Under the pieces are notes generated by a model. The model was given only the letters and a program-made list of their open reading frames with translations, had not been told where the DNA came from and searched no databases. This document shows, piece by piece, positions 6,780 through 56,308 of a stretch of 64,000 nt of DNA; within the stretch, counting starts at the first letter, position 1, and each line of letters begins with the position of its first letter. Location: assembly GCA_958296105.1 (NCBI GenBank), contig OY282441.1, positions 1,941,800-2,005,799 of the forward strand, written 5' to 3'. The DNA is from an uncultured Dehalococcoidia bacterium (GTDB taxonomy: Bacteria; Chloroflexota; Dehalococcoidia; Lucifugimonadales; UBA1123). The translations under genes and the position numbers were made by a program.

Positions 6780-7550
6780 TTATCTGCCGAGCGAGACTGC
6801 CAGCAGCGCCAGCAGATTTTGCCCGGCGTGGGCTAATATAGGTATCCACAAGGATTTCGTCTTGCTGTAAGCCCATGCGAACAGCGCTCCGCTGACGAAT
6901 ATCGGGATCATCGTGGCGATGGACACGTGCGCGAGCGCAAAGACCGCCGAGCTTGCGATGACGCCGGCGGGCAGACCGTACCTAGACTCCAGCCCGCCGA
7001 ACAGGAAGCCCCTGAAGAACGCCTCCTCCGCCAGCGGAGTCCATACCACGATGGCAAAGGCGGAGGCGACTAGCAGCCATCCTTCGCCGAACATCTGTCG
7101 CGGCGGGTCTTGCGGGACGAGCGTATCGAAGCCAAGAGCGGACGCGATGGCGGCGTAGACAGCGGTGAATCCCACACTGCCAGCCAGAGCGCCGAGCGCG
7201 AGCCACCAAGCGCGCCCCGCCGCTACGGGCGGGAGCCTGAATCCGAGCGCGTCCCAAGACAGTCCGTACTTGCGCGCTCCCATCCGCCACACGACCCAGA
7301 TCATCGCGCCGCCGCTGACCAGCGCGGCGGCGGAAACCGCCGCGGGCGATATGCCGCCTCGACCTGTCGCTATCTGCGTGACAGCTACGATCGCCGCGCC
7401 GACCACGATCGCCAGAGCCGCCGCAAGAGAGCCTGCGATCATGTCCCACGCAGTCCAGGGGGCTTTCTGGCGGAGAGGATCTCCCCCCTGCCGAGACAGG
7501 CTGCCTGCCGAGATCGAGCCGTCTCCCGAAGGCGTATCGAGTGGCGGCAT
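6780..7550 (-). CDS. CPBP (CAAX/Abi) family intramembrane glutamic endopeptidase
   Basis: Multi-TM protein carrying the EEAFFRGFLF and FALAHV motifs. The ATG overlaps the stop of the upstream MBL gene (TAATG at 7548-7552). Confidence 0.85.
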   Translation of the reverse strand: MPPLDTPSGDGSISAGSLSRQGGDPLRQKAPWTAWDMIAGSLAAALAIVVGAAIVAVTQIATGRGGISPAAVSAAALVSGGAMIWVVWRMGARKYGLSWDALGFRLPPVAAGRAWWLALGALAGSVGFTAVYAAIASALGFDTLVPQDPPRQMFGEGWLLVASAFAIVVWTPLAEEAFFRGFLFGGLESRYGLPAGVIASSAVFALAHVSIATMIPIFVSGALFAWAYSKTKSLWIPILAHAGQNLLALLAVSLGR

Positions 7551-8191
7551 TAGCTGTTCAGCCAGTCCACGTCGCCCTGAAGGTCGGAGGGATGGTCTTT
7601 GGACGCGAACACCTCGTACTTGCCCATCTCCGTCTTCAGATTGCCGTCGTCGCCGTGCCCGGGGTAGAAGTCGTCTATCTGGTCGAGTGTGAACAGCCTC
7701 TCGGAGATGCTGCCGATCAGCTGCTGGAGCTTCTCGGGGCTGCCCGACCTTCCGGGCCCGTTGGGAAACAGCGTGTCTCCCGTGAACAGGTGCTGACGGA
7801 ACGAGAAGCAGGTTGAGCCGGGCGTATGCCCCGGCGTGAAGATCGCGGTGAGCGTGACCGAACCCGCGCTTATCTCGTCTCCGTCGTGTACGAGTATGGA
7901 AGGCGGAGTGGGTAGCCCGTCCGCATCCTCCGCGCCGATGCCGACCGGAGCGCCGATGGCGTCGCTGACCTCCTTCAGCCCTTCGATGTGGTCCCAGTGG
8001 TTATGTGTAATGAGAATCGCCTGAACGTCCGTCCCGCGCGCCGCCTCTATCAGCGCGCCGGGGTCGGGGGGCGTGTCTATGACGATGCTGCGGTTCGTCT
8101 GCGGGCAGACCACCAGATAGGCGTTGTTCCCATACGGTCCGCACTGAATCTTGTGTATGACGATCGAGTCGTCCTGAAAGTGGGCCGCCAT
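7550..8191 (-). CDS. MBL-fold metallo-hydrolase (glyoxalase II-like)
   Basis: The ILITHNHWDHIEG metal-binding motif is present. An ATG at 8191 (MAAHFQDD...) is preceded by aggagga. The longer ORF reaching 8401 is probably a 5' over-extension. Confidence 0.85.
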   Translation of the reverse strand: MAAHFQDDSIVIHKIQCGPYGNNAYLVVCPQTNRSIVIDTPPDPGALIEAARGTDVQAILITHNHWDHIEGLKEVSDAIGAPVGIGAEDADGLPTPPSILVHDGDEISAGSVTLTAIFTPGHTPGSTCFSFRQHLFTGDTLFPNGPGRSGSPEKLQQLIGSISERLFTLDQIDDFYPGHGDDGNLKTEMGKYEVFASKDHPSDLQGDVDWLNS

Positions 8192-8448
8192 CCGTTCCTC
8201 CTGCTCATGTCCTGAAGGCGTGGCTTCGGGTTCGAGTGTGATTATGTGATTATAGGGGAATTTGTATCGGGAGTGTGCATAACTGCGCCGAGCCGCTGCG
8301 CGCCCCTCGCATTGTACACAGTATGCCAGCGCCGCGCAGTCAGCGAGAATCTGTATCGACTCTGCCGACGCGCCAGCAGAATGTCGCGGATGCCGCTTCA
8401 CGGGTTTCGTCTTCTGTACAGATGCGGGGCTTGTTCACTATGCTTTAG

Positions 8449-10235
<1,787 letters not shown>

Positions 10236-10236
<1 letters not shown>

Positions 10237-10258
10237 GGGCGGCTCTCAGAACCGCCCC
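10236..10258. terminator. GC-rich hairpin between convergent sat/cysC and E2 genes (possible bidirectional terminator)
   Basis: ggggcgg-ctctcagaa-ccgcccc. There is no clear U-tract on either strand. Confidence 0.3.
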
Positions 10259-10311
10259 TGTCAAGCACGACCCGCGCCGGAACGCCAGCCTGCCGGATCG
10301 CCCACACTCGA

Positions 10312-12159
10312 TTACAGGATTATGCTGAGAGGGTTCTCCAGAAGGTCTTTGATGGCGTTGATGAACATGGCCCCCTCCGCGCCGTCGACTATGCGATGGT
10401 CTGCCGAGAGCGTAGCGGTCATCATCTGGCGGACGACTATCTGGTCGTCGTCCGTCACCACCGCGCGCTTCTGCACCGCGCCGATGGCTAACACCGCCGA
10501 CTGCGGCGGCTGGATTATGGCTACGAAGCTCGTCACCCCCATCATGCCCATGTTGGATATTGCGAACGTCCCTCCGGAGTATTCCTGAGCGCTCAGTATG
10601 CCCTGCTGCGCGCGCGCGGCGATGTCCTTGCTCGCTTGGGCGATCTCCTTTAGCGACATGTTGCCGGCGCCGACGATCGCGGGCATTATCAGCCCTTCTT
10701 CGACTGCCATCGCCACGCCCACGTTGACCTCGTCATTCATGCGGATGCCGCTGTCCCTGTAATAGGCGTTGAACTTGGGGAATCGCTTCAGCGCGAGTAC
10801 GCTGGCGGCGATTATCATGTCGTTGACCGTGGCGCGCACGCCCTCGCCTGCCATCGCCTCGTTGACCTGCGCGCGCAGCGCCATAGCCTTGCTCATGTCC
10901 ACGTCCGTATTGACGTAGAAGTGCGGCTTTTCGTTCTTGGAGCGAATCGTGACGCGCGCTATCTGCTGCCGCGTCCGCGAAAGCGGGAGAAGATATTCCG
11001 CCCTGACTTCAGAGTCAGCCACCCCTACGGCAACGGGTTCGACGAATACCACTTCGTCCACTGGATACTCGTCAGCCACCGGCTCGTCGTCTTCGTCCAC
11101 CGCTTCGATGGTGACGGCTTCGGCTGACGGCTCTTCGCCAGTTTCCGGTTCGACTTCTTCGTCTACCGCTTCAGCCTCGACCGGTTCGGCTGTCGGCTCT
11201 TCGCCAGTTTCCGGCTCGACTTCTTCGTCTACCGCTTCGGCTTCGACCGGTTCGGCTGTCGGCTCTTCGCCAGTTTCCGGTTCGATTTCTTCGTCTACCG
11301 CTTCGGCGATGATGGTTTCGGCTGTCGGCTCTTCGCTAGTCTCCGGTTCGGCTTCTTCGTCTACCGCTTCGGCGATGATGGTTTCGGCTGTCGGCTCTTC
11401 GCCAGTCTCCGGTTCGACTTCTTCGTCCACCGCTTCGGCCTCGACCGGTTCGGCTGTAGGTTCCTCTTCAGCGCTGGTTTCGGCTGTCGGCTCCTCGCCA
11501 GTTTCCGGTTCGGCTTCTTCGTCCACCGCTTCGGCGATGATGGTTTCGGCTGTCGGCTCCTCGGCAGCCACCGCTTCGACTGCTGGTTCGGCCATCGCCT
11601 CGCTCTCGACAGGCTCCGGGTCTGGCGTCGAGGATGCTTCGACTATTTTGAGGATATCCTCCTTGACGATCCGCCCGCCCGGCCCCGTGCCTTCGACATC
11701 GGCTAGGTCGATGCCCGCATCCTGCGCCATCTGGCGCGCGACTGGAGTGGCGAACACGCGCCTGCCCGCGCTCGGCGTCTGTCGTGACGCGCCGTTCCCG
11801 CCGACTTGGGTCGCCGCTCCGAGCGGTATGGCGGCGCGCAGCTCTTCCGAGCGGACTTCGGGCTGCGCCTCCACCGCCGAATCGGGGGCGGCAGGCTCTG
11901 CCTCGGGGGGCGGAGCCGCGATCACGTCTCCAACGAGAGCGATGGCTTCCCCAACCGGAACGGTCGAGCCTTCGGTCACCAGTATCTTTTGCAGCACGCC
12001 GGAGGCGTAGGACTCGAACTCCACAACCGCCTTGTCTGTCTCGATCTCTGCGACAGGCTCGCCCAACTCGACGTTGGACCCCTCCGCCTTCAGCCATCTA
12101 ACCAAGGTGCCTTCCTGCATGTCGTAGCCCATCTGGGGCATGGTCAGTTCAGTAGCCAA
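10312..12159 (-). CDS. pdhC: Dihydrolipoamide acyltransferase (E2) of a 2-oxoacid dehydrogenase complex, with an expanded acidic repeat linker
   Basis: The lipoyl domain has IETDKAVVEFES and the PSBD has ATPVARQMAQDAGIDLADVEGTGPGGRIVKEDI. The catalytic domain ends with ATLSADHRIVDGAEGAMF. A TTG at 12159 follows gagggaag. Alternative starts are at 12174 and 12141. Confidence 0.9.
   Translation of the reverse strand: MATELTMPQMGYDMQEGTLVRWLKAEGSNVELGEPVAEIETDKAVVEFESYASGVLQKILVTEGSTVPVGEAIALVGDVIAAPPPEAEPAAPDSAVEAQPEVRSEELRAAIPLGAATQVGGNGASRQTPSAGRRVFATPVARQMAQDAGIDLADVEGTGPGGRIVKEDILKIVEASSTPDPEPVESEAMAEPAVEAVAAEEPTAETIIAEAVDEEAEPETGEEPTAETSAEEEPTAEPVEAEAVDEEVEPETGEEPTAETIIAEAVDEEAEPETSEEPTAETIIAEAVDEEIEPETGEEPTAEPVEAEAVDEEVEPETGEEPTAEPVEAEAVDEEVEPETGEEPSAEAVTIEAVDEDDEPVADEYPVDEVVFVEPVAVGVADSEVRAEYLLPLSRTRQQIARVTIRSKNEKPHFYVNTDVDMSKAMALRAQVNEAMAGEGVRATVNDMIIAASVLALKRFPKFNAYYRDSGIRMNDEVNVGVAMAVEEGLIMPAIVGAGNMSLKEIAQASKDIAARAQQGILSAQEYSGGTFAISNMGMMGVTSFVAIIQPPQSAVLAIGAVQKRAVVTDDDQIVVRQMMTATLSADHRIVDGAEGAMFINAIKDLLENPLSIIL
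11077..11565 (-). repeat. In-frame 66-nt tandem repeat (about 7 units) encoding EEPTAE(TII/PVE)AEAVDEE(A/V/I)EPETG inside the E2 linker
   Basis: Read from the translation at residues about 204-366 of the 620-aa ORF. The DNA shows the same periodicity. Confidence 0.85.
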
Positions 12160-13272: not shown

Positions 13273-14247
13273 CTAAGCGTAGATGTTGTCGTAGATGGCT
13301 TCGGCTTTGGGGAACGGGCTTTCACGGGCGAACTCGACGGCATCGGCGATAAGCTCCGCCACCTCGGACTCGATCCGCTCCACCTCGGACGGCGTGATCA
13401 GCCCCTCGCCCATGGCGAACATCTTGAACCTGTTGATCGGGTCGTTGATTCGCCACTCCTCGACCTCGGAGTTATCACGATAGTTGACCGGATCCGCCAT
13501 GGAGTGACCCCGATACCTGTAGGTCATCGCTTCCAGGAACACCGGCCCTTGCCCTGCCCTGACGTGGCGAAGCGCCTCGATGGTGGCTTCATGCACCTCC
13601 ATGAGGTCCATTCCGTCCACCTGTACGGAGGGTATCTTGTAGTACTCGGCGAAGTTGTAGATGTCCCGTCCCGCGGCGTGGGTGCGCTCCACGTGGGTTC
13701 CCATTCCGTATAGATTGTTCTCTAGGAAGAACACTACGGGCAGCTTCCACAGCGAAGCCAAGTTGAGCGACTCGTGGAACTCGCCCTCGTTCACCGCGCC
13801 GTCTCCAAAGAAGACCATGACGACGCCGTTCTCCCGTTTCAGCTTGATGCCCAAGCCCATGCCCACGCCAATGGGCATCTGTCCGCCGACTATCGCGTGT
13901 CCGCCCATGAAGTGCAGCTTCGCGTTGAACAGGTGCATGGATCCGCCCTTGCCCCCGCTCGATCCGGTGGCTCTGCCGCACAGCTCTGCCATACACGCCT
14001 TGGGGTCCATCCCCCGGGCTAGGGCGTGTCCGTGATCGCGGTAGTGGGTGATGACGTAGTCCTGCGGCCCCAGCGCGCTGATCGCGCCCACGGCTACGGC
14101 CTCCTCCCCGATGTACAGGTGCAGGAAGCCCCTGATGAGACTCTGCATGTAGAGCCTTGCGCTGGCCTCCTCGAATCTGCGGATGACGAGCATCTTACGG
14201 TAGAACTCTGCCACCTGCGCCTTGTCGATGTTCACGGCTGCTTTCAT
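13273..14247 (-). CDS. pdhA: 2-oxoacid dehydrogenase E1 alpha subunit (TPP-dependent)
   Basis: 324 aa. A YRGHSMADP phospho-loop-like motif is present, and the TPP-binding motif is GDGAVNEGEFHESLNLA. Confidence 0.93.
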   Translation of the reverse strand: MKAAVNIDKAQVAEFYRKMLVIRRFEEASARLYMQSLIRGFLHLYIGEEAVAVGAISALGPQDYVITHYRDHGHALARGMDPKACMAELCGRATGSSGGKGGSMHLFNAKLHFMGGHAIVGGQMPIGVGMGLGIKLKRENGVVMVFFGDGAVNEGEFHESLNLASLWKLPVVFFLENNLYGMGTHVERTHAAGRDIYNFAEYYKIPSVQVDGMDLMEVHEATIEALRHVRAGQGPVFLEAMTYRYRGHSMADPVNYRDNSEVEEWRINDPINRFKMFAMGEGLITPSEVERIESEVAELIADAVEFARESPFPKAEAIYDNIYA

Positions 14248-14350
14248 GGAATCCTCGGACTGATGCGCTGATGCTGATGCGGGGGTTGCGGGCTGAAGCT
14301 CGATGTTCGAGAAGGCAGACCGCCTCTCTCCCGATCCGTCTGCCTCCAGC

Positions 14351-15733
14351 CTACACGTGTACCGCCTCCCCTTCTGCTGCGAGGGCGGCCTCTTTTATCG
14401 TCTCGGATATGGTCGGATGAGGATGCACGAGCCATCCCAGCTCACTCGTGGTCGCCTCCAGCAGCTTGGTCATGCCAAGCTCTCCCAGAAGCTCCGTGAC
14501 CTCCGCCCCGATCATGTGTCCGCCGAGTATCTCGCCGATCTCGGCATCGACCACCAGCTTGACCATGCCCTCCGGCTCGTTCATCGCCAGCGCTTTGCCG
14601 CTGGCGGCCATTGGGAATCTGCCGACCTTGACCGAGCGCCCCGCCGCCTTCGCCTGCGCCTCCGTCAGCCCGAAGCTCGCCACCTGCGGGCGGCAGTAGA
14701 TCGCTCTGGGAATCTGCTCGTAGGCGAGCGGCTGAGGGTCTAGGCCAGCCATATGCTCGACTGCGGTCACGCCCTGCGCCGATGCCACGTGCGCAAGCAG
14801 CATCTTGCCCGTCACGTCCCCTATGGCGTATATACCCGTCGCGCTCGTTTGCATCGAGTCATCCACTTGGACGAAATCCCGTTCGGTGCGAACGCCCACG
14901 TGTTCCAGTCCGATGCCGTCCACGTTGCCCTGCACTCCGACAGCCACCAGCACGGTGTCGTACTCGGAGACAGAGCTTCCCCCGTTCGATGCGATGGAGA
15001 CTTTGGCAGTGTCGCCGTCCAGCCCGATTCCCTGCACCTGCGCGCCGGTCAGTATCTGGATGCCCTGCCGTCGGAACGAGCGCTCCAGCTGCGCGCTGAT
15101 CTCCTCGTCCTCGTTTGGGATCAGGCGCGGCAGCAGCTCGACTATCGTAACCTCTGCCCCGTAAGTGCGCCATACGTAGGCGAGCTCGCATCCGGTGGCG
15201 CCTCCCCCGATGATCACCGCGTTTCGCGGCACTTCCCGACGTTCAAGCGCCTCGCGGCTGGTTATCACGATTTCGCCGTCTATGGGGATGGTGGGAATGC
15301 GCCGCTGTCGCGCTCCGGTTGCCACGATGATGTTGTCCGCCGACAGCCGCCTGCCGCTGTCCACGACCTCGACGGTGTTGGCGTCTCTGATGACGCCGGA
15401 TCCCTCGACGTGCCGCACCCCGTTCTTGCGGAGCAGCATAGACACCCCGCGGGTCAGCTGCCTGACCACCTGTCGACTGCGGTCGACCGCCTTGCCGAAA
15501 TCCGGTCTCACGTCATGGACGCTGATGCCATACTCGTCGGCGCGCTGAATTAGGCTCAGCACCTCGGCATTCCTGAGAAGCGCCTTCGAGGGTATGCACC
15601 CCCAGTTGAGACAGATTCCGCCAAGCGCGTCCCGCTCCACGACGGCGGCTTTCATGCCGAGCTGTCCGGCGCGAATTGCGGCTACATATCCACCCGGACC
15701 CGAGCCGAGTACCACTACGTCATAGTCTGCCAA
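14351..15733 (-). CDS. lpdA: Dihydrolipoyl dehydrogenase (E3)
   Basis: 460 aa. The FAD motif is VLGSGPGGY and the redox disulfide is GGICLNWGCIPSK. The C-terminal dimerisation domain has HPHPT. Confidence 0.93.
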   Translation of the reverse strand: MADYDVVVLGSGPGGYVAAIRAGQLGMKAAVVERDALGGICLNWGCIPSKALLRNAEVLSLIQRADEYGISVHDVRPDFGKAVDRSRQVVRQLTRGVSMLLRKNGVRHVEGSGVIRDANTVEVVDSGRRLSADNIIVATGARQRRIPTIPIDGEIVITSREALERREVPRNAVIIGGGATGCELAYVWRTYGAEVTIVELLPRLIPNEDEEISAQLERSFRRQGIQILTGAQVQGIGLDGDTAKVSIASNGGSSVSEYDTVLVAVGVQGNVDGIGLEHVGVRTERDFVQVDDSMQTSATGIYAIGDVTGKMLLAHVASAQGVTAVEHMAGLDPQPLAYEQIPRAIYCRPQVASFGLTEAQAKAAGRSVKVGRFPMAASGKALAMNEPEGMVKLVVDAEIGEILGGHMIGAEVTELLGELGMTKLLEATTSELGWLVHPHPTISETIKEAALAAEGEAVHV

Positions 15734-41824: not shown

Positions 41825-43183
41825 ATGAGAGCGCTAGGATACTTCAGGCTGGACGCATACACGCAAGCGTCCGACGAGACGAAGACACTGGACGACTTCG
41901 AGCGGGACTTCATGGAGTTCTGCGATCTCAACCTGCACCAGCCGGTGAGATGCTTCGGTGACCTCAACGCCTCCGCCAGTATGCGCTATCCGCAGTACGA
42001 CAGCATGTTGAAGTACATCGAGGAGTCGGGATCCAACTTTCTCGTGGCGATACCGGACGCCAGCCACCTGGGCGGAGACCTCGAAGCGGTGGCGCGGAGA
42101 TTCTTGGAAGTGGAGAGCGCGGGAGCTAAGGTGGCGTGCCAAGACGAGGATATGCCTGACCCGCTTCAGAACGCCTTCGTAGTGCTGGGCGTAACGGGAG
42201 TGTCGAGAGCAAAGAGCGGCAAGATCAGGCGCTCGATGGAAGACAAGGCGCTTCAGGGCAAAGGGCTTGGACGCCCTCCTTACGGATATCGCAACGGAGA
42301 TGACGGATCCTTCGCCGTCGTCAAAGACGAGGCGGCGGTCGTCCAGCTGATCTTTCGGCTGTACACTAGGGAAGAGATGGGGATGAGGCTCATCGTCCAG
42401 CACCTGAACGAGCGCGGCATCACCACGCGAAGAGGCGGCAAGTGGAACGTGGTCAGCGTCCGAGACATACTGAAGAACCCCGTCTACATGGGCACCTACA
42501 CGCGGTTCGGGCTGCGGCTGCCCCGCAGCCACGAAGCGATCATCGAACCGCGAGAGTACCGCGAGGCGCGCGACATCGTCCGCGAGAGGCGACCGCGCGG
42601 GCGAGTGTCCAGAGCCGAGCCGTATCTGCTGTCCGGCATGGTGTTCTGCGCCTACTGCGGCAACCGCATGATGGGCGTCACCCGCCATCAGCGCTGGCGA
42701 AACAAGAGCGGCAGGCGCAACCGCAAGACGTACAGATACTATCAGTGCCAGTCGCGCAACAACCAGAGCGTATGCGGCTACCACACTTGGCGCGAGGCGG
42801 ATCTGGAGGGCGCGGTGCTGTCCCAAATTCCGCTGGCAGTCAAGGCAAGGGAGCTTCAGCGCCGCAGCGCGCACGACTTGGACCGCGAACCCGATAGCGC
42901 GCTCCGAAAGGTGTGGGACGAACGGATCAGGAACGCCGAGCGCAGATTTCTCTTGGCCATGCGCAAGACCGCTTCAGGCGCTGCCAAGACGGATCACCTA
43001 GAGCAGGCCATAGCGGATCTGGACAAGGCGCGCGCAAGCGCGGAGAGATCGGACACCCCCGCCAACGTGGAAGAGACGCTCGGCAAGTGGGAGGATCTGG
43101 AGTTCGAAGAGAAGCGAGACTTCCTGCTGACGCACGTGGCGCGCGTCGAGGTCCGAGACCACATGGCCACACTGGTGGGGTGA
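41825..43183 (+). CDS. Large serine-recombinase homolog with a degenerate (probably inactive) catalytic domain
   Basis: 452 aa. The recombinase domain has PPYGYRN...VVQLIFRLY...GMRLIVQHLNERGITTRRGGKWNVVSVRDILKNPVYMG. A Zn ribbon (CAYCGNRM...YYQCQSRNNQSVC) and a coiled coil follow. The N-terminus GYFRLDAYTQ has Asp where the nucleophilic Ser sits, and DASHLG replaces the D-R-L-x-R motif. Confidence 0.85.
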   Translation: MRALGYFRLDAYTQASDETKTLDDFERDFMEFCDLNLHQPVRCFGDLNASASMRYPQYDSMLKYIEESGSNFLVAIPDASHLGGDLEAVARRFLEVESAGAKVACQDEDMPDPLQNAFVVLGVTGVSRAKSGKIRRSMEDKALQGKGLGRPPYGYRNGDDGSFAVVKDEAAVVQLIFRLYTREEMGMRLIVQHLNERGITTRRGGKWNVVSVRDILKNPVYMGTYTRFGLRLPRSHEAIIEPREYREARDIVRERRPRGRVSRAEPYLLSGMVFCAYCGNRMMGVTRHQRWRNKSGRRNRKTYRYYQCQSRNNQSVCGYHTWREADLEGAVLSQIPLAVKARELQRRSAHDLDREPDSALRKVWDERIRNAERRFLLAMRKTASGAAKTDHLEQAIADLDKARASAERSDTPANVEETLGKWEDLEFEEKRDFLLTHVARVEVRDHMATLVG

Positions 43184-43340
43184 CGGTGAACTTGACCGCT
43201 CTAATAGTTGCTGTCATACTCCATCACCGTAGGAAAGAATGGTTTATAGTAGGGAAGAATAGTTTCCCGATTCACGAGATGTGCAGCAATGAGGCGCATC
43301 GAAGCGTTGGAATCGGGAAACCGTCAGGTGAGCTAGGAGC

Positions 43341-44420
43341 TTGTCCACAGGTCGAGGCTTGAGCGTCTATCAGAATCTGATACGCCCACTACTGTTCAGG
43401 CTGCCAGCTGAAGATGCGTCTCATCTCGCCGCCCTGACACTCAGACTGTGGCCGATTTGGGGCGCGTTGAGGGCAGTCAACGGCTTCGAGTCGTCGGACT
43501 TGTCCACAGAGATCGCAGGAATCCCAATTGGGAATCCCGTTGGCTTGGCTGCGGGCTTGGATAAGGACTGCGAGATTCTCCCCGCGCTTTCGCGTCTTGG
43601 CTTTGGCTACCTGACCTGTGGAACAGTCACCCTCGACCCCAGACCCGGAAATCCCCAACCGCGTCTGATCAGAGAGCAGGGGCGCGATGCGCTCATAAAC
43701 TCCATGGGCTTCCCGAACAAGGGGCTGGCTTCGGCGGTCGAGAAGATCGAGCGAGACCGTCACCGCTGCGGCGACACTCCGATTGTAGTCAGCGTGTCGG
43801 GAACCGAAGTAGATGACATCGTCGAGTGTCATCGAAAAGTCGAGCCGCTGGCACACGCCGTAGAAATCAACATCAGCTCGCCGAACACCAAAGGACTCAG
43901 GATCTTCCACTCCCCCCACGTACTGGATAGCCTGCTCGGGGCGATTGATGCGGAGCGTTCCAAGAAGCCGCTCTTTGTGAAGATCCCTCCATTCCCCTCT
44001 GAAGGCGAAGATGCCGAGAGCCACGACAGCGCGCTGTCCCTCGTAGACGTCTGTCTCTCGAACCGGGTGGATGCGCTGACTGTGGCGAATACCCACCCCG
44101 TGAACGATGCAAGGCTCAAAGTCGGTTCTGGCGGATCGAGTGGAAAGCCTGTGTACGAGCCGATGCTGAGAATGGTATCCGAGGTGCGGCAGCGTGTCGG
44201 GGATGAGACGTGTATAAACGCATCCGGCGGGATATTCACTGCACAGGACGCTTGGGCTGCCATCGAAGCGGGCGCAAATACGGTTCAGACGCTGACTGGT
44301 CTCGTGTACAGAGGCCCGAACGTCGCGCGCGACATCGCCAAGGGCCTTGCGGAGCTTGTCGAGCGCAGGGGCATTGAGGGGATTGCGCAATTGCGGTACG
44401 ATGGCATGATACGCCTGTGA
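43341..44420 (+). CDS. pyrD: Dihydroorotate dehydrogenase (quinone), class 2
   Basis: LIRPLLFRLPAEDAHxxA-type N-terminus, followed by GLAAGLDKD, NSMGFPNKG, INISSPNT and the C-terminal part LVYRGP. An alternative TTG start is at 43359. Confidence 0.9.
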   Translation: MSTGRGLSVYQNLIRPLLFRLPAEDASHLAALTLRLWPIWGALRAVNGFESSDLSTEIAGIPIGNPVGLAAGLDKDCEILPALSRLGFGYLTCGTVTLDPRPGNPQPRLIREQGRDALINSMGFPNKGLASAVEKIERDRHRCGDTPIVVSVSGTEVDDIVECHRKVEPLAHAVEINISSPNTKGLRIFHSPHVLDSLLGAIDAERSKKPLFVKIPPFPSEGEDAESHDSALSLVDVCLSNRVDALTVANTHPVNDARLKVGSGGSSGKPVYEPMLRMVSEVRQRVGDETCINASGGIFTAQDAWAAIEAGANTVQTLTGLVYRGPNVARDIAKGLAELVERRGIEGIAQLRYDGMIRL

Positions 44421-44456
44421 CTGTAAGCTCGAACATCGGAAGAGGGGTGTTGATCA

Positions 44457-45593
44457 GTGCTAGAAGAAGCGCACGTCGGCGGGCTGAAGTTTCCAGACCT
44501 TTCGATTCAGGGGTTTCGTGGAATTAGAGACCTTTCGATCCCGCATCTGGGCCGCGTGACGCTGATTACCGGGAAGAACAACACTGGGAAATCTTCCATT
44601 CTCGAAGCGCTGCGTCTGCACACCAGTAACGCGGCTCTTGACGTCGTCTATGACGTTTTAGAGTTTCGTGAAGAACAGAGCATAATGGAGAGTGCCGATA
44701 CGAGATTCCCTCATCCCGGCAGCCTGTTCGAGTTCTCGTCGCTCTTTCATGGATTTCCCACGTTTTCGGAAACTTCCGATCCAATCGTTATTTCGACCAG
44801 CGGTAAAACACGTCCCATGAGATTGAATATGCGAATGGAGTGGCTCGCCGAAGAAGAGGACTCTGAGGGAAACACGCGACTTGTTCCACATCGGAACGAC
44901 AGATTCGAGGAATACAGGGATACCTTGCCCTTCTTGGTTGTCGAAACGGAAGATGGAACTCAGAACCGCAGATTGCGAAGACTTCCTGCCCGTCACCCCC
45001 GTTTAGGGCGCAGGTTCGCGGGTAGGGAACGAACGTCGTGCGTACTGGTCAACCCATACGGAGGTGAAAAAACCTATAAGCTGGATTCAATGTGGGGGAA
45101 AACCGCGCTGACAGACAACGAGAAACACGTAATCGAAGCGCTGCGCATCATCGACCCGAAAATATCCGCCGTCTCGATGGTCGCCAGTGAAGTTGACGTG
45201 AGAACTGCCATCGTGCGCTCCAGAGACATTCCGAGACCTGTGCCGCTGCGCTCCTTTGGCGATGGGATGACTCGACTGTTCGCCATAGTCCTGTCACTCG
45301 TCAACGCTCAGGGAGGCCTTCTGTTGATAGACGAGTTCGAGAACGGTCTGCATTACAGCGTACAGCTAGATATCTGGCGCATGATATTTCGATTGGCCCA
45401 AATACTGGACGTTCAGGTCTTCGCCACCTCTCACAGTCGAGACACTGTGGAAGCCTTTCAGACAGCGGCCTCCGAATCTCCCGGAGAGGATGCCCTCGTG
45501 CGCCTGACCCGCCGTGGCGACGACGTCATATCCACCGTGTTTTCGGAACGTGAGTTGGAAATTGCGACCCGCGACGAGATCGAGGTGCGCTGA
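44457..45593 (+). CDS. ABC/SMC-like AAA_21-type ATPase (predicted defence-module ATPase)
   Basis: 378 aa. The Walker A is ITGKNNTGKSSILEAL. A signature-like region reads RSFGDGMTRLF. The Walker B/D-loop is LLLIDEFENGLH and the H-loop is FATSHS. The gene is in a low-GC segment. Confidence 0.85.
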   Translation: MLEEAHVGGLKFPDLSIQGFRGIRDLSIPHLGRVTLITGKNNTGKSSILEALRLHTSNAALDVVYDVLEFREEQSIMESADTRFPHPGSLFEFSSLFHGFPTFSETSDPIVISTSGKTRPMRLNMRMEWLAEEEDSEGNTRLVPHRNDRFEEYRDTLPFLVVETEDGTQNRRLRRLPARHPRLGRRFAGRERTSCVLVNPYGGEKTYKLDSMWGKTALTDNEKHVIEALRIIDPKISAVSMVASEVDVRTAIVRSRDIPRPVPLRSFGDGMTRLFAIVLSLVNAQGGLLLIDEFENGLHYSVQLDIWRMIFRLAQILDVQVFATSHSRDTVEAFQTAASESPGEDALVRLTRRGDDVISTVFSERELEIATRDEIEVR

Positions 45594-46229
45594 TTGGCTA
45601 ACCGGAAGATTCTGATGGTAGAGGGAAGCGACGACGCTCACGTCCTGAAACACATCTGCGGCGCTCATGACATTCCCCTTCTCGATGAAGTAAAGTCACA
45701 CGGTGGCGCATCGGAACTCCTCGAATCCATCCCCGTTCGCCTCAAGGCCAGCAGCGAGGAAGGCGACGTTGTCGGCGTGATCATGGATGCTGACACGAGT
45801 CTGGATGCTCGATGGCAGTCTATCCGCAGCATATTCGTTCAGCTCGGATATCAGAATGTTCCTCCCCAACCCAATCCAGACGGGACGATACTTGAAGCTC
45901 CAAATGGGGGCGCGCTTCTGCCGAGAGCCGGCGTCTGGATAATGCCGGATAACAAGACTCCCGGAATTTTAGAGGACTTCCTCCGGTTCCTAGTCCCTGA
46001 TCAGCCAAACGACCTTTTCGATCACGTTGAGCGCAGCGTGGATTCGATCCCCGATCAGCGTTTTACAGATAACGATAGGCCCAAGGTGATCATCCACACT
46101 TGGCTCGCGTGGCAGAAAGAGCCGGGGAGACCCTACGGCACAGCCATCACCGCTCGTTTCCTCGACTCCAACTTGCCCCAAGCGAGGGTTCTTGCATCTT
46201 GGATTGCTCGGCTGTTCCATCCACTCTGA
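45594..46229 (+). CDS. TOPRIM-like small protein (DUF4435/DUF3226/DUF4276-like) partnered with the ATPase
   Basis: 211 aa. A TTG start lies immediately after the ATPase TGA. KILMVEGSDD supplies the Glu and VGVIMDADTS supplies DxD, giving the TOPRIM E...DxD spacing of about 55 aa. Confidence 0.7.
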   Translation: MANRKILMVEGSDDAHVLKHICGAHDIPLLDEVKSHGGASELLESIPVRLKASSEEGDVVGVIMDADTSLDARWQSIRSIFVQLGYQNVPPQPNPDGTILEAPNGGALLPRAGVWIMPDNKTPGILEDFLRFLVPDQPNDLFDHVERSVDSIPDQRFTDNDRPKVIIHTWLAWQKEPGRPYGTAITARFLDSNLPQARVLASWIARLFHPL

Positions 46230-46293
46230 TCTATACCCCCCATCCCGGTGGTGAGCGCTGCATCCTGCCTGTGCTATAATTTTGCGTGGCCTT

Positions 46294-46383
46294 TGGAGAG
46301 GTGGCCGAGCGGTTTAAGGCGCTGGTCTCGAAAACCAGTATGGGAGCAATTCCATCGTGGGTTCGAATCCCACCCTCTCCGCC
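46294..46383 (+). tRNA. tRNA-Ser (anticodon CGA), CCA encoded
   Basis: Manual fold: acceptor ggagagg/cctctcc, anticodon stem ctggt/accag with loop ctCGAaa, a long variable arm, and T-arm gtggg-ttcgaat-cccac. Confidence 0.9.
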
Positions 46384-46486
46384 AGCAGGCAGGCAGCGCC
46401 TTCGGAAGCCCGTCGACAGTTCGATACGAACGCAAGGCGAGCGCGCCATAGGGGGTTGTCGCTGGCTGGCAAAGTGAATCGCCTCG

Positions 46487-46585
<99 letters not shown>

Positions 46586-46666
46586 CTCTTTCTTCGCCCC
46601 TGTTGCCTTGCGCCCTGAAAAATTGCGCTTTTACAAAACTCGCGCATCCTGTACAATCGACCTTGT

Positions 46667-47785
46667 ATGGAAACGTCTGAGCTAAAATATTGGATCGCTT
46701 TCAACCGTGTATCCCGAGTCGGGCGCGCGCGGATGGCGCTGATGCAGGGCCACTTCGGCGCTCTGGCGGTGGCGTGGCAAGCCAGCGCCGGTCAGCTTCG
46801 GCAGGCTGGGCTGAATGCGCAGACTGCGCGCCACATCGCAGAGTCTCGAAAGAAGATAGACCCTGACGCGGAGATGGAGCGTGTGCAGCGAGCGGGAGTT
46901 CGCGCGCTGACGTGGCACGACGATGACTACCCTCCCCGTCTGAAGGAGATTTACGACAAGCCCCCGGTGCTGTACGTCAAGGGCGACCTTCAGCCGCAGG
47001 ACGAGCGCTCGGTGGCGGTGGTGGGAACGCGCAGACCGACCGCCTACGGACGCGAGGCCGCAAGGCAGCTCACGACCGATCTGGCGAGCGTGGGCGTGAC
47101 GATAGTGAGCGGTCTCGCCAGAGGCATAGACGGCGTGGTTCACCGCGCCGCGCTGGAGTCCGGCGCGCGCACGATCGCGGCGCTGGGCAGCGGAGTGGAC
47201 GTGATCTACCCGCGAGAGCATGGGTCGCTTGCGGCACAGATAGCCCAAAACGGAGCGGTGGTGTCGGAGCATCCGATAGGGGCGCGTCCGGACGCGCAGA
47301 ACTTCCCGAGGCGAAACCGCATAATCAGCGGAATGACTCTCGGCACACTCGTAATCGAGGCTCCGGAGGGCAGCGGGGCGCTGCTGACCGCAAGGCACGC
47401 GCTGGAACAGAACCGTGAGGTGTTCGCGGTGCCGGGCAGCATCCTGTCCCCTGCGTCTAGGGGCGGAAATGGACTGATCCGAGACTCGGGCGCCAAGCTG
47501 GTTGCCGAAGTCGGCGACATTCTCGAAGAGCTGAACCTGTCGGCGGTCGAGCGCCAGATCGAGCTGGCGGCGTTCTTCCCCGAAGACGAAGCGCAGGCGG
47601 CCGTTCTCGGATTCGTCACCTTCGATCCGATACACATAGACGAAATAACCAGAAATTCAGCACTCGCCGCCTCGACAGTGAGCAGCGCCCTCACTATGAT
47701 GGAATTGCGAGGAATGGTGCGTCAGGTTGGCGCAATGAACTACGTGCGGCTGAGGGAAGCTCCGGCCGAGTATAAGACAGTGTAG
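46667..47785 (+). CDS. dprA: DNA-processing protein DprA (Smf)
   Basis: 372 aa. VAVVGTRRPTAYG..., ...IVSGLARGIDG..., ...TIAALGSGVD..YP and the C-terminal winged-helix region are present. Confidence 0.9.
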   Translation: METSELKYWIAFNRVSRVGRARMALMQGHFGALAVAWQASAGQLRQAGLNAQTARHIAESRKKIDPDAEMERVQRAGVRALTWHDDDYPPRLKEIYDKPPVLYVKGDLQPQDERSVAVVGTRRPTAYGREAARQLTTDLASVGVTIVSGLARGIDGVVHRAALESGARTIAALGSGVDVIYPREHGSLAAQIAQNGAVVSEHPIGARPDAQNFPRRNRIISGMTLGTLVIEAPEGSGALLTARHALEQNREVFAVPGSILSPASRGGNGLIRDSGAKLVAEVGDILEELNLSAVERQIELAAFFPEDEAQAAVLGFVTFDPIHIDEITRNSALAASTVSSALTMMELRGMVRQVGAMNYVRLREAPAEYKTV

Positions 47786-55585: not shown

Positions 55586-56308
55586 TCAGCCCGTCAGCTT
55601 CAGGAATGCCACGCCCGCGCTGACGAACACCCCCACCACTGCGACCTGAAGAATGGCTACTTGAATGATCATTCGGCTCATATCCGACCGGACACGCTCC
55701 ACGTCGGACTTGGTTTCCAAGCGCGCTCCATCCACCTTGGCATTGATCTCCATGCGCAGGTTTTCTATGTTGGCGGCCGTCTCCAAACGCATACGCTCCA
55801 TATTGGAGTCTATGCGTTTCACGCTAGCGTTCATTTCCGAGCGCAGGCCTTCTATGTTGGCGTTCATTTCCGAGCGCAGGCCTTCTATGTTGGCGTTCAT
55901 TTCCGAGCGCAGGCCTTCTATGTTGGCGTTCATTTCCGAGCGCAGGCCTTCTATGCTGGCGGCCGTCTCCAAACGCATACGTTCCATATTGGAGTCTATG
56001 CGTTTCACGCTGGCGTTCATTTCCGAGCGCAGGCTTTCTATGCTGGCGGCCGTCTCCAAACGCATACGTTCCATATTGGAGTCTATGCGTTTCACGCCGG
56101 CGTTCATTTCCGAGCGCAGGCCTTCTATGTTGGCGTTCATTTCCGAGCGCAGGCCTTCTATGTTGGCGGCCGTTTCTATGCGCAGGCGCTCCACGTTGTC
56201 GTTGGCGGATTCCACCCTGCCGTTGAGACGCTCGATGTCGGCCTTCGTCGCCAGGTGTTCGGATCCACCTTCGAGCCTGCTGATTCTCTCCTCGATGTTC
56301 GTTACCAT
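55586..56308 (-). CDS. C-terminally membrane-anchored coiled-coil protein built from 11-residue repeats (DUF1640/XhlA-like organisation)
   Basis: 240 aa. The NIEGLRSEMNA unit is reiterated and nested in the 33-aa unit SVKRIDSNMERMRLETAASIEGLRSEMNA. The C-terminal TM is IIQVAILQVAVVGVFVSAGVAFL. Confidence 0.8.
   Translation of the reverse strand: MVTNIEERISRLEGGSEHLATKADIERLNGRVESANDNVERLRIETAANIEGLRSEMNANIEGLRSEMNAGVKRIDSNMERMRLETAASIESLRSEMNASVKRIDSNMERMRLETAASIEGLRSEMNANIEGLRSEMNANIEGLRSEMNANIEGLRSEMNASVKRIDSNMERMRLETAANIENLRMEINAKVDGARLETKSDVERVRSDMSRMIIQVAILQVAVVGVFVSAGVAFLKLTG
55764..56185. repeat. Near-perfect nested tandem repeats (33-nt unit and 99-nt higher-order unit) inside the coiled-coil gene
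   Basis: gcgttcatttccgagcgcaggccttctatgttg recurs back-to-back (four consecutive copies from 55827). The ggcggccgtctccaaacgcatacgttccatattggagtctatgcgtttcacgc blocks recur three times. Confidence 0.9.

Follow-up and report, generated by a model that had tools for sequence, protein, structure and literature searches.

A low-G+C ATPase–DUF3226 gene pair of the PDC-M38 type, a candidate split OLD-like defence cassette, in a Dehalococcoidia genome

Layout and base composition of the cassette

Contig OY282441.1 of an uncultured Dehalococcoidia bacterium carries, within the 64,000-nucleotide stretch analysed here (hereafter the window), a compact two-gene cassette located between pyrD and a pair of tRNA-Ser genes. 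The first gene (ORF1) codes for an ATPase and the second (ORF2) for a protein of the DUF3226 family; together they almost certainly represent PDC-M38, a phage defence candidate of the PADLOC collection. The cassette and its borders comprise the following features:

44421..44456, forward strand: 36-nt spacer from the pyrD stop to the ORF1 start
44457..45593, forward strand: ORF1, GTG start, 378 aa (ORF table)
45591..45596, forward strand: TGA-TTG junction; the ORF1 TGA occupies 45591-45593, with no gap to the ORF2 TTG
45594..46229, forward strand: ORF2, TTG start, 211 aa (ORF table)
46230..46294, forward strand: right border of the cassette, from alignment with L082 and L084 (two related genomes, see below)
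46295-46384, forward strand: tRNA-Ser(cga)
46488-46580, forward strand: tRNA-Ser(gga)

Both reading frames at 44457-46229 agree in length and start codon with the initial annotation of this DNA, and an independent gene caller made identical ORF1 and ORF2 calls on the ~99%-identical contig of a sister strain (L001). The ORF2 start directly abuts the ORF1 stop, again as annotated (junction letters ...CGC TGA TTG GCT...), and a GAGG lies ~8 nt upstream of the TTG. This zero-spacer arrangement suggests that ORF1 and ORF2 are translationally coupled. ORF1 has its own purine-rich Shine-Dalgarno-like sequence, GGAAGAGGGG, ~10 nt upstream of the GTG and within the 36-nt spacer. A promoter/terminator scan found no promoter-like site in the spacer (44421-44456), and the cassette is therefore probably transcribed by read-through from pyrD or from a start within the 3′ end of that gene. 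The same scan detected no terminator-like sites in 44200-46700, and the promoter-like sites inside the cassette were weak, no more than shuffles would explain. The two tRNA-Ser genes, which had also been noted downstream of the pair, were the sole features above gathering scores in an Rfam scan of 42900-46800.

The G+C content of the cassette is 54.7%, compared to a window mean of 62.1% (SD 2.5 over sliding windows of the same length). No 1.77-kb stretch of the 64 kb has less G+C, only 0.24% of sliding windows being as low, and GC3 of the cassette is ~0.61 as against 0.68-0.82 in the adjoining genes. This dip exceeds chance. The sampled 60-nt lines from which low G+C had been proposed (26/60 at 44641 and 31/60 at 45841) were reproduced, and the low G+C thus holds for the cassette as a whole.

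ORF1, an SMC/Rad50-type ATPase

ORF1, with an estimated mass of ~42 kDa, is, judging from its motifs and structural model, an ABC ATPase of the SMC/Rad50 type with an intact catalytic site. It matches the Pfam families AAA_21 (1.9e-20) and AAA_15 (8.2e-20), both above cutoffs. Among PADLOC models its best match is PDC-M38A (PDLC04611, 1.3e-89, 299 bits), residues 14-378 being aligned with positions 4-383 of the 383-position profile, and four more PDC-M38A models also match. Second comes AbiLi (PDLC02336, 1.3e-63), likewise covering residues 14-378, on profile positions 4-340 of 340. AriA, NsnB, HEC-01A, GajA, Mad3, PtuA and Old produced only partial matches: the AriA models align with two partial stretches (6.3e-26 and 1e-19), Old (5e-10) and GajA (4e-14) each with parts of the protein, and the Mad3 models are weak (3.8e-12 in PADLOC; 28 bits vs a 420-bit cutoff in NCBIfam). 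No NCBIfam model scored above its cutoff for either ORF1 or ORF2.

The sequence motifs GKNNTGKSS, LLLIDEFENGLH and FATSHS lie at residues 39, 288 and 322, respectively, and delineate the following predicted functional sites of ORF1:

G39-S47: Walker A
R265-S-F-G-D-G270: signature-like motif
D292-E293: Walker B/catalytic base
H326: H-loop

Across 45 ORF1 homologs the residues G39, N41, G44, K45, S47, R265, S266, G268, D269, G270, D292, E293 and H326 are invariant. In the AlphaFold2 (AF2) model (pLDDT 81.2, pTM 0.84) the ABC head is broken by a beta-rich insert spanning approximately residues 95-200. A Foldseek search with this model retrieved Rad50, SMC heads, Septu and retron PtuA, and GajA with E-values of 1e-10 to 1e-13. 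Mean column identity is 0.54-0.60 in the insert, compared to 0.73-0.87 in the core, and the insert is presumed to be a sensor or partner-binding module.

ORF2, a predicted OLD-type Toprim nuclease of the DUF3226 family

ORF2 is a full-length member of the Pfam family DUF3226 (PF11536; 3.1e-64, 217 bits vs a 27-bit cutoff, profile positions 2-207 of 208), and M1 of ORF2 is aligned with M1 of its homologs. In PADLOC it matches PDC-M38B (PDLC04624, 3.5e-49, residues 4-208 on profile positions 13-218 of 220) as well as a second PDC-M38B model (PDLC04623, 1.1e-37). No other PADLOC family, AriB, AbiLii, Old and GajA included, matched at E <= 0.1, and the Pfam search gave no DUF4435 or Toprim_OLD match. 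DUF3226 is a sizeable family: a word-indexed search gave 1,256 clusters at 90% identity, an exhaustive one 2,350 representatives at 50% identity. Nearly all of the 150 best-scoring representatives are stand-alone proteins of ~200-240 aa.

Two acidic motifs had been singled out in ORF2, KILMVEGSDD at residue 5 (E10) and VIMDADTS at residue 62 (D65 and D67); they and the three motifs of ORF1 are all found where the initial annotation had placed them. To gauge their conservation we used an alignment of 61 diverse homologs (36-67% identity). E10 is present in 61/61 sequences and D65 in 60/61, in agreement with the expectation that the acidic residues would be conserved. Position 67 is occupied by D in 49/61 and by N in 11/61, and position 14 by D in 55/61 and by E in 4/61. 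E127, N120 and K164 are each found in 61/61, and the other invariant residues are G113, W115, P118, G124 and P177, with N120 lying among them. The TWLAWQ motif (residues 169-174) is kept in at least 90% of the sequences. Toprim domains are expected to have a conserved Gly after b2; G38 of the G37-G38 pair, which follows the strand at 32-35, is the majority residue but falls below 90% in this alignment.

The AF2 model of ORF2 (pLDDT 77.8, pTM 0.69) has the pattern b-a-b-a-b-a-b-b followed by four helices, which fits a Toprim fold with a helical domain behind it. In this model E10 comes right after b1 (residues 5-9), D65 ends b3 (59-65) and D67 lies in the next loop; as modelled, these are the canonical Toprim positions. 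When the model was compared with PDB structures using Foldseek, the top five matches were C-terminal regions of the Xanthomonas and Burkholderia OLD proteins (probability 0.95-0.99, ~220 aligned columns). A chain of the retron Eco2 complex was also among the fold matches, with a probability of 0.75.

Profile-profile comparison provides a further link. The DUF3226 profile aligned by hhalign with a DUF4276 protein from end to end (98.7%, E-value = 3.8e-16, 19% identity), and E10, D65 and E127 of ORF2 were placed opposite identical residues. DUF4276 (Mad4) has been assigned to the Toprim superfamily (PMC12065111). The hhalign match to P2 Old is confined to 41 columns with 35% probability, on the TOPRIM b1 motif LLVEG (Old residues 392-436), and is consistent with the OLD link without proving it. 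Taken together, four independent lines, namely conservation, structural model, fold search and profile comparison, agree on a Toprim domain, none of them being decisive alone. The relationship of ORF2 to OLD is visible at the fold and profile-profile level only.

The two-metal active site of the Burkholderia OLD protein (Bp OLD), of class 2, is built from E400, E404, D455-x-D457, T506/E508 and K562, with T506/E508 located on the helical domain's first helix (PMC6755086); E404 and T506/E508 are ligands of the second metal, and K562 is the catalytic lysine. Matched by order and spacing, these residues would correspond to positions in ORF2 as follows (offsets counted from the first glutamate):

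Bp OLD E400 = ORF2 E10: offset 0
Bp OLD E404 = ORF2 D14: offset +4
Bp OLD D455 = ORF2 D65: offset +55
Bp OLD D457 = ORF2 D67: offset +57
Bp OLD E508 (first helix of the helical domain) = ORF2 E127 (first helix after the last strand): offset +117, vs +108 in OLD
Bp OLD K562 = ORF2 K164 (helical part): offset +154, vs +162 in OLD

E10, D14, D65, D67, E127 and K164 are thus candidate metal ligands or catalytic residues of ORF2. Because of this agreement in order and spacing, and of the similar length of the two regions (211 aa for ORF2, 205 aa for Bp OLD), ORF2 looks like a free-standing OLD-type catalytic region, that is, a Toprim plus helical domain, and is a predicted nuclease.

Acquisition of the cassette in its lineage

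The sister strain L001 (~99% nucleotide identity) carries the same cassette, with 210/211 ORF2 residues identical and ORF1 ~99% identical. Cassette divergence between the two strains (0.5-0.6%) is within the range of the flanking genes, and in each strain the two frames are intact over their full length. The four nonsynonymous differences in ORF1 all fall at residues 61-208, in the variable region and outside the core motifs.

The arrangement differs in the three next-closest genomes, in which pyrD is 62-66% identical. Here, CT398 is followed by a 452-aa recombinase-like gene, by pyrD and, in the slot of the cassette, by a gene for a HAD-family hydrolase. Two of the three continue with tRNA-Ser(cga), tRNA-Ser(gga), dprA, topA and xerC, and the third loses synteny beyond the HAD gene. 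Similarity between the window and the HAD-carrying genomes L082 and L084 sets in again at the TATAAT-like box of tRNA-Ser(cga), ~35 nt upstream of that gene, which indicates that the acquired segment ends within ~30 nt of the ORF2 stop. Given the lowest G+C in the window and the HAD gene in the same slot of the relatives, we conclude that the cassette was acquired and replaced the HAD gene, in a slot that varies within an otherwise conserved housekeeping block. The pair is accordingly no syntenic core gene, a possibility that would have spoken against a defence system. No att-like direct repeats were found around the cassette, the repeats present being chance ones of 12-18 nt; it arrived without an integrase or att scar.

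The initial annotation had arrived at acquisition by another route, namely a recombinase relic about 1.3 kb upstream that, along with the tRNA genes, would mark an island hotspot. The gene in question is:

41825-43183, forward strand: serine-recombinase-like gene, 452 aa, with Recombinase and Zn_ribbon_recom domains, ending 1.27 kb upstream of the cassette

The distance holds (the gene ends at 43183); the relic and the hotspot do not. The recombinase-like gene has the same length and place (CT398 - X - pyrD) in all three distant relatives examined, and the tRNA genes are conserved in two of them. No Pfam resolvase domain was matched in this 452-aa protein, the N-terminus of which reads MRALGYFRLDAYTQ, with D/A where we presume the catalytic serine of the serine-recombinase motif to lie. 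By its sequence it is probably a conserved, catalytically dead, domesticated recombinase rather than a remnant of a mobile element. An integrative island at a tRNA gene with a recombinase relic was rejected in view of the conserved synteny, the unmatched resolvase domain and the lack of att-like repeats, and the conclusion of acquisition stands on the variable HAD slot between pyrD and the tRNAs, not on the recombinase and tRNA argument.

Three further observations concern the surroundings of the cassette. A segment of ~95 nt upstream of pyrD (43239-43333) is absent from the ~99%-identical L001; it contains a perfect 12-nt inverted repeat (43262-43273 / 43310-43321) with a 36-nt loop and is possibly a small hairpin element of a mobile or regulatory nature. 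The pyrD gene itself (43362-44420) is 2.46% diverged between the strains, compared to 0.1-0.6% in neighbouring genes, with the differences clustered at 43954-43970 and 44084-44141, which suggests a recombination tract directly upstream of the cassette. Finally, an unannotated ORF contains a tandem array at 55827-56187 with a 33-nt unit (also periods of 66, 87 and 120), copies of which match up to 99-100%; the unit would be an 11-residue repeat if translated, and the array differs between the two strains.

Gene pairing, distribution and mobile context

Relatives of the pair were collected in a one-genome-per-species scan, which found 392; the locus counts given here and below refer to the best 80 of these 392. 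An ORF1-type ATPase gene lies immediately upstream of the DUF3226 gene in 74 of the 80 loci, mostly within a few nt. The six unpaired cases comprise four loci cut by contig ends, one partial gene and one with a 1.7-kb gap. The ATPase and DUF3226 genes are thus strictly co-inherited. The gapped locus, L025 from Spirochaetia (7269-10612), is the only relative in which the two genes are apart, by ~1.7 kb; its ATPase alignment stops at residue 338, and an insertion may have disrupted the pair.

The best 80 relatives display 45-75% identity and come from at least eight phyla, the hosts including Dehalococcoidia and other Chloroflexota, Latescibacterota, Spirochaetia, Planctomycetota, Verrucomicrobiota, Lentisphaerota, Acidobacteriota, several Pseudomonadota and further groups. 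The pyrD, dprA and topA neighbourhood of the window recurs in none of the 80. More distant pairs (27-35% identity) reside on small plasmids of Acinetobacter, Citrobacter and Klebsiella; the pair is essentially the sole cargo of such plasmids of 4-14 kb, as on a 6.4-kb ColE-type mobilizable plasmid. GenBank phage genomes yielded no relatives of the pair, and five IMG/VR viral contigs carry distant ones. The pair has spread horizontally across phyla.

Some individual loci deserve mention. In the Plesiomonas shigelloides megaplasmid NZ_CP027853.1 (L088, 7856-9600) an AAA ATPase and DUF3226 pair lies ~3.3 kb downstream of a phage tail cluster composed of tape measure, tail protein X and a VgrG/Pvc8-family protein, with two hypothetical genes before the pair. 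This position recalls the P2-type hotspots of OLD and PARIS-like systems. Six loci of Latescibacterota (L006, L007, L011, L012, L016 and L020) have the same upstream GFO/IDH/MocA oxidoreductase gene beside the pair, which within this phylum appears to have been kept by vertical inheritance at a single site, unlike its scattered placement elsewhere.

Association with defence systems

PDC-M38 is a PADLOC phage defence candidate defined as an AAA_21/AAA_15 ATPase plus DUF3226 (Payne et al., bioRxiv 10.1101/2024.01.29.577857, supplement), predicted by what its authors call "guilt-by-embedding" (Payne et al., bioRxiv 10.1101/2024.01.29.577857). The supplement of that study is the only place where we found the name. 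The relatives collected here display the same kind of embedding: in 15 of the 80 loci, as detected with tblastn, the pair sits within an Hma system, most often arranged as HmaA-pair-HmaB-HmaC, the large flanking genes being identified by PADLOC as HmaA, HmaB and HmaC. One of the Hma-embedded loci comes from a close Dehalococcoidia relative, L003, with an ORF2 70% identical to that of the window. In this locus (OY760867.2, 5494-18565) HmaA is followed by the PDC-M38 pair (8877-10609), HmaB, an AAA_21 plus DUF4276 pair (13511-15191) and HmaC, so that two homologous effector families are stacked in one Hma locus.

When the two genes closest to the pair on either side were surveyed in the relatives, DUF1156, DUF499, SNF2/ResIII helicase, NOV_C, HEPN, PIN and AAA_21+DUF4276 pairs emerged as recurrent neighbours. 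Many other neighbours are housekeeping genes, such as the GFO/IDH/MocA oxidoreductase of Latescibacterota. With regard to defence genes around homologs the picture is mixed, with 15 of 80 loci within Hma systems and many loci with housekeeping neighbours.

Proposed function and alternative explanations

We consider it probable that the locus is a horizontally acquired PDC-M38 cassette of a 'split OLD' kind, in which the ATPase gates a nuclease in defence. By analogy with PARIS (PMC11464382), Septu, Gabija and OLD, we infer a mechanism along the following lines. An ORF1 ATPase oligomer would bind the ORF2 nuclease and keep it inactive. A phage-derived cue would then be sensed through the variable beta-rich insert together with the ATP cycle; in view of the frequent embedding in Hma restriction-like systems, an anti-restriction protein or a replication or recombination intermediate might serve as this cue. 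The nuclease would thereby be released or switched on and would cleave nucleic acid, either DNA or tRNA, so that abortive infection or growth arrest would halt phage replication. Complex formation, trigger, substrate and defence phenotype are all put forward here as predictions. It may be further speculated that, as in PARIS, embedding in a methylase-containing restriction-like system would give the pair a back-up role against anti-restriction.

Several points weigh against this interpretation. At the level of ORF2, the fold match to OLD is moderate (TM 0.34-0.45, E ~4e-3 in Foldseek), AriB is missing from the top 50 fold matches, and searches of PDB chains with the ORF2 sequence and with the 61-sequence profile gave nothing meaningful; what matched by sequence, at E > 0.01, was antibody light chains and designed proteins. 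The putative mapping of its active site onto OLD, moreover, rests on order and spacing, not on superposition. As for the role in defence, ~80% of the relatives, as well as the window cassette, are not beside recognisable defence genes; the 64-kb window contains no Hma genes, and the neighbours of the cassette in it are housekeeping genes. Between the two strains 10 codons of the cassette differ, five of them nonsynonymously, and purifying selection is not demonstrable within the species. We found no published test of PDC-M38 or DUF3226, and neither name occurs in the full text of the searched literature. A later cold-seep validation of eight candidates did not include PDC-M38. The related HEC-01 (ABC ATPase plus TOPRIM) gave no defence in the assays of Payne et al., although it did in another study.

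Alternatively, the pair might be a toxin-antitoxin (TA)-like addiction module of mobile elements, with ORF2 as the toxin, ORF1 as the antitoxin and the chromosomal copies as selfish passengers. Such a view accommodates the distant members that are essentially the sole cargo of 4-14 kb plasmids, the description of PARIS as type II TA-like, and the isolation of the window cassette among housekeeping genes. We regard it as unlikely, since embedding in Hma systems in 15 of 80 loci, the very pattern used to predict defence, is unexpected for plain addiction, and an ABC ATPase whose catalytic site is intact would make an unusually elaborate antitoxin; besides, as PARIS illustrates, TA-like and defence roles are not mutually exclusive. 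Very little credence can be given to a housekeeping or stress-related DNA repair module similar to RecF plus RecR or to SbcCD/Rad50-Mre11, without a phage role. The N-terminus of ORF1 does produce weak matches to RecF, RecN/SMC and Rad50 models, Rad50 is among its best fold matches, and the cassette lies near dprA and topA, genes of DNA transactions, but the RecF/Rad50 scores are far under the family cutoffs (28 bits vs at least 172). A repair function also fits poorly with the sporadic cross-phylum distribution at 45-75% identity, with a pyrD/dprA/topA neighbourhood shared by 0/80 relatives, with a HAD gene instead of the pair in the closest syntenic relatives, and with the atypical G+C of the cassette.

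A different question is whether the cassette is functional in this particular genome or is an inert or decaying remnant of a transfer. Decay might be read into the non-ATG starts (GTG and TTG), the 36-nt upstream spacer without a promoter-like site, the 5/10 between-strain codon differences that are nonsynonymous, and the lack in the window of a partner defence system such as Hma. High-G+C genomes, however, commonly use GTG and TTG starts. Full-length, intact frames in two strains, the presence of all family-conserved catalytic and motif residues, Shine-Dalgarno-like sequences before both starts, and the location of the four nonsynonymous ORF1 changes outside the core motifs make this highly unlikely.

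Returning to the ATPase-gated nuclease, a more far-reaching version of it is that DUF3226/PDC-M38 constitutes a fifth, minimal OLD-like class, split exactly at the boundary between the ATPase and the C-terminal region; its repeated insertion between HmaA and HmaB would then signify that it guards Hma-type restriction systems and, much as PARIS senses Ocr, fires when Hma is disabled by a phage. We consider this version doubtful. If true, the sensor of the class would be a beta-rich insert rather than a coiled coil, the substrate would possibly be other than that of PARIS, and DUF3226 would join the Toprim superfamily as a member not described before; DUF3226 is not listed as a Toprim member in the PARIS or Menshen paper, and the name gave no full-text match.

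With regard to the initial annotation, the layout of a split ABC ATPase plus a TOPRIM-like protein is upheld by the AAA_21/AAA_15 assignment, the conservation of E10, D65 and D67, the OLD fold matches and the homology to DUF4276. Profile searches placed ORF2 in DUF3226, one of the Pfam families it had listed as worth comparing, and ORF1 in AAA_21/AAA_15, PADLOC returned PDC-M38A and PDC-M38B, and structure prediction yielded a Toprim-like ORF2 with OLD C-terminal regions as top fold matches. Its description of the pair as PARIS/OLD-like and shorter than PARIS survives insofar as the pair is OLD-like and distinct from PARIS, but the suggested distinct, minimal family is already catalogued as DUF3226/PDC-M38. 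As a defence candidate, the cassette is thus a catalogued prediction and not a new family, and its architecture will not surprise a specialist.

Pairs that combine an ABC ATPase with a TOPRIM protein (OLD, Gabija, PARIS, AbiL, MADS3-4) recur in bacterial immunity, and triggers and targets are known for few of them. What the present analysis adds is that DUF3226 can be placed among the OLD-type Toprim proteins, with a specific hypothesis for its active site, that it is homologous to Mad4/DUF4276, and that about a fifth of the close relatives lie inside Hma systems. Residues suited for mutation are E10, D14, D65, D67, E127 and K164 of ORF2, and K45 and E293 of ORF1. For the source genome, the practical result is modest: an accessory, defence-type cassette in place of a HAD hydrolase gene.

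Comparison with known systems

Proteins of the OLD family (class 1, P2 Old and Ts OLD; class 2, Bp and Xcc OLD and Gabija GajA) combine, similarly to the window pair, an ABC ATPase with a Toprim-plus-helical nuclease, and the C-terminal region of Bp OLD (205 aa, vs 211 aa for ORF2) is the best fold match of ORF2. However, OLD and GajA are single fused polypeptides, whereas the window pair consists of two genes. Sequence similarity of ORF2 to OLD is essentially undetectable, as no Toprim_OLD or Old/GajA hidden Markov model (HMM) finds it, and the ATPase of OLD carries a dimerisation/coiled-coil element where ORF1 has a beta-rich insert. In Gabija there is in addition a UvrD-like partner, GajB, which does not accompany the window pair. 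With two genes and an ORF2 unmatched by OLD models, the pair does not belong to OLD classes 1-3.

PARIS ('class 4 OLD') shares with the window pair the two-gene split into an ABC ATPase sensor and a TOPRIM effector. Both PARIS and PDC-M38 occur on mobile elements and both are linked to restriction-type defences. By analogy, the two likely follow the same logic, with the ATPase sequestering the nuclease until a trigger appears. The components nevertheless differ: AriB is a DUF4435 protein of ~35 kDa, whereas ORF2 is a DUF3226 protein of 24 kDa, and AriA (~53-55 kDa) has a helical coiled-coil insert (PMC11464382), compared to the beta-rich insert of the 378-aa ORF1. The trigger of PARIS is Ocr and its target tRNA-Lys. 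Membership in PARIS is not supported, because ORF2 has no AriB/DUF4435 match and the AriA match of ORF1 is partial (6.3e-26, vs 1.3e-89 for PDC-M38A).

AbiL of Lactococcus is also a two-gene system, and ORF1 matches AbiLi end to end. AbiLii has been predicted to be an OLD-type Toprim protein with 6NJV as its best structural match (PMC13064643). AbiL has a demonstrated abortive-infection phenotype, whereas PDC-M38 is a predicted system, and since no AbiLii model matches ORF2 at E <= 0.1, the effector is of a different sequence family and the pair is not AbiL. The Mad3/Mad4 pair of MADS is related in another way: DUF4276 (Mad4) is homologous to DUF3226 over the full length, both families partner an AAA_21-type ATPase, and AAA_21 + DUF4276 and PDC-M38 pairs can share one Hma system, as in L003. 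DUF4276 and DUF3226 are nonetheless separate Pfam families with 19% identity, and the Mad3 match to ORF1 is weak. The window has no methylase or other MADS component beside the pair, and assignment to MADS was rejected on account of the weak Mad3 match and the missing MADS genes.

It is PDC-M38 itself to which the window pair conforms. The copy described here stands alone in a housekeeping neighbourhood and is not embedded in a defence locus, but it matches both the A and the B model, with the A gene followed by the adjacent B gene on one strand, and displays no structural difference from PDC-M38.

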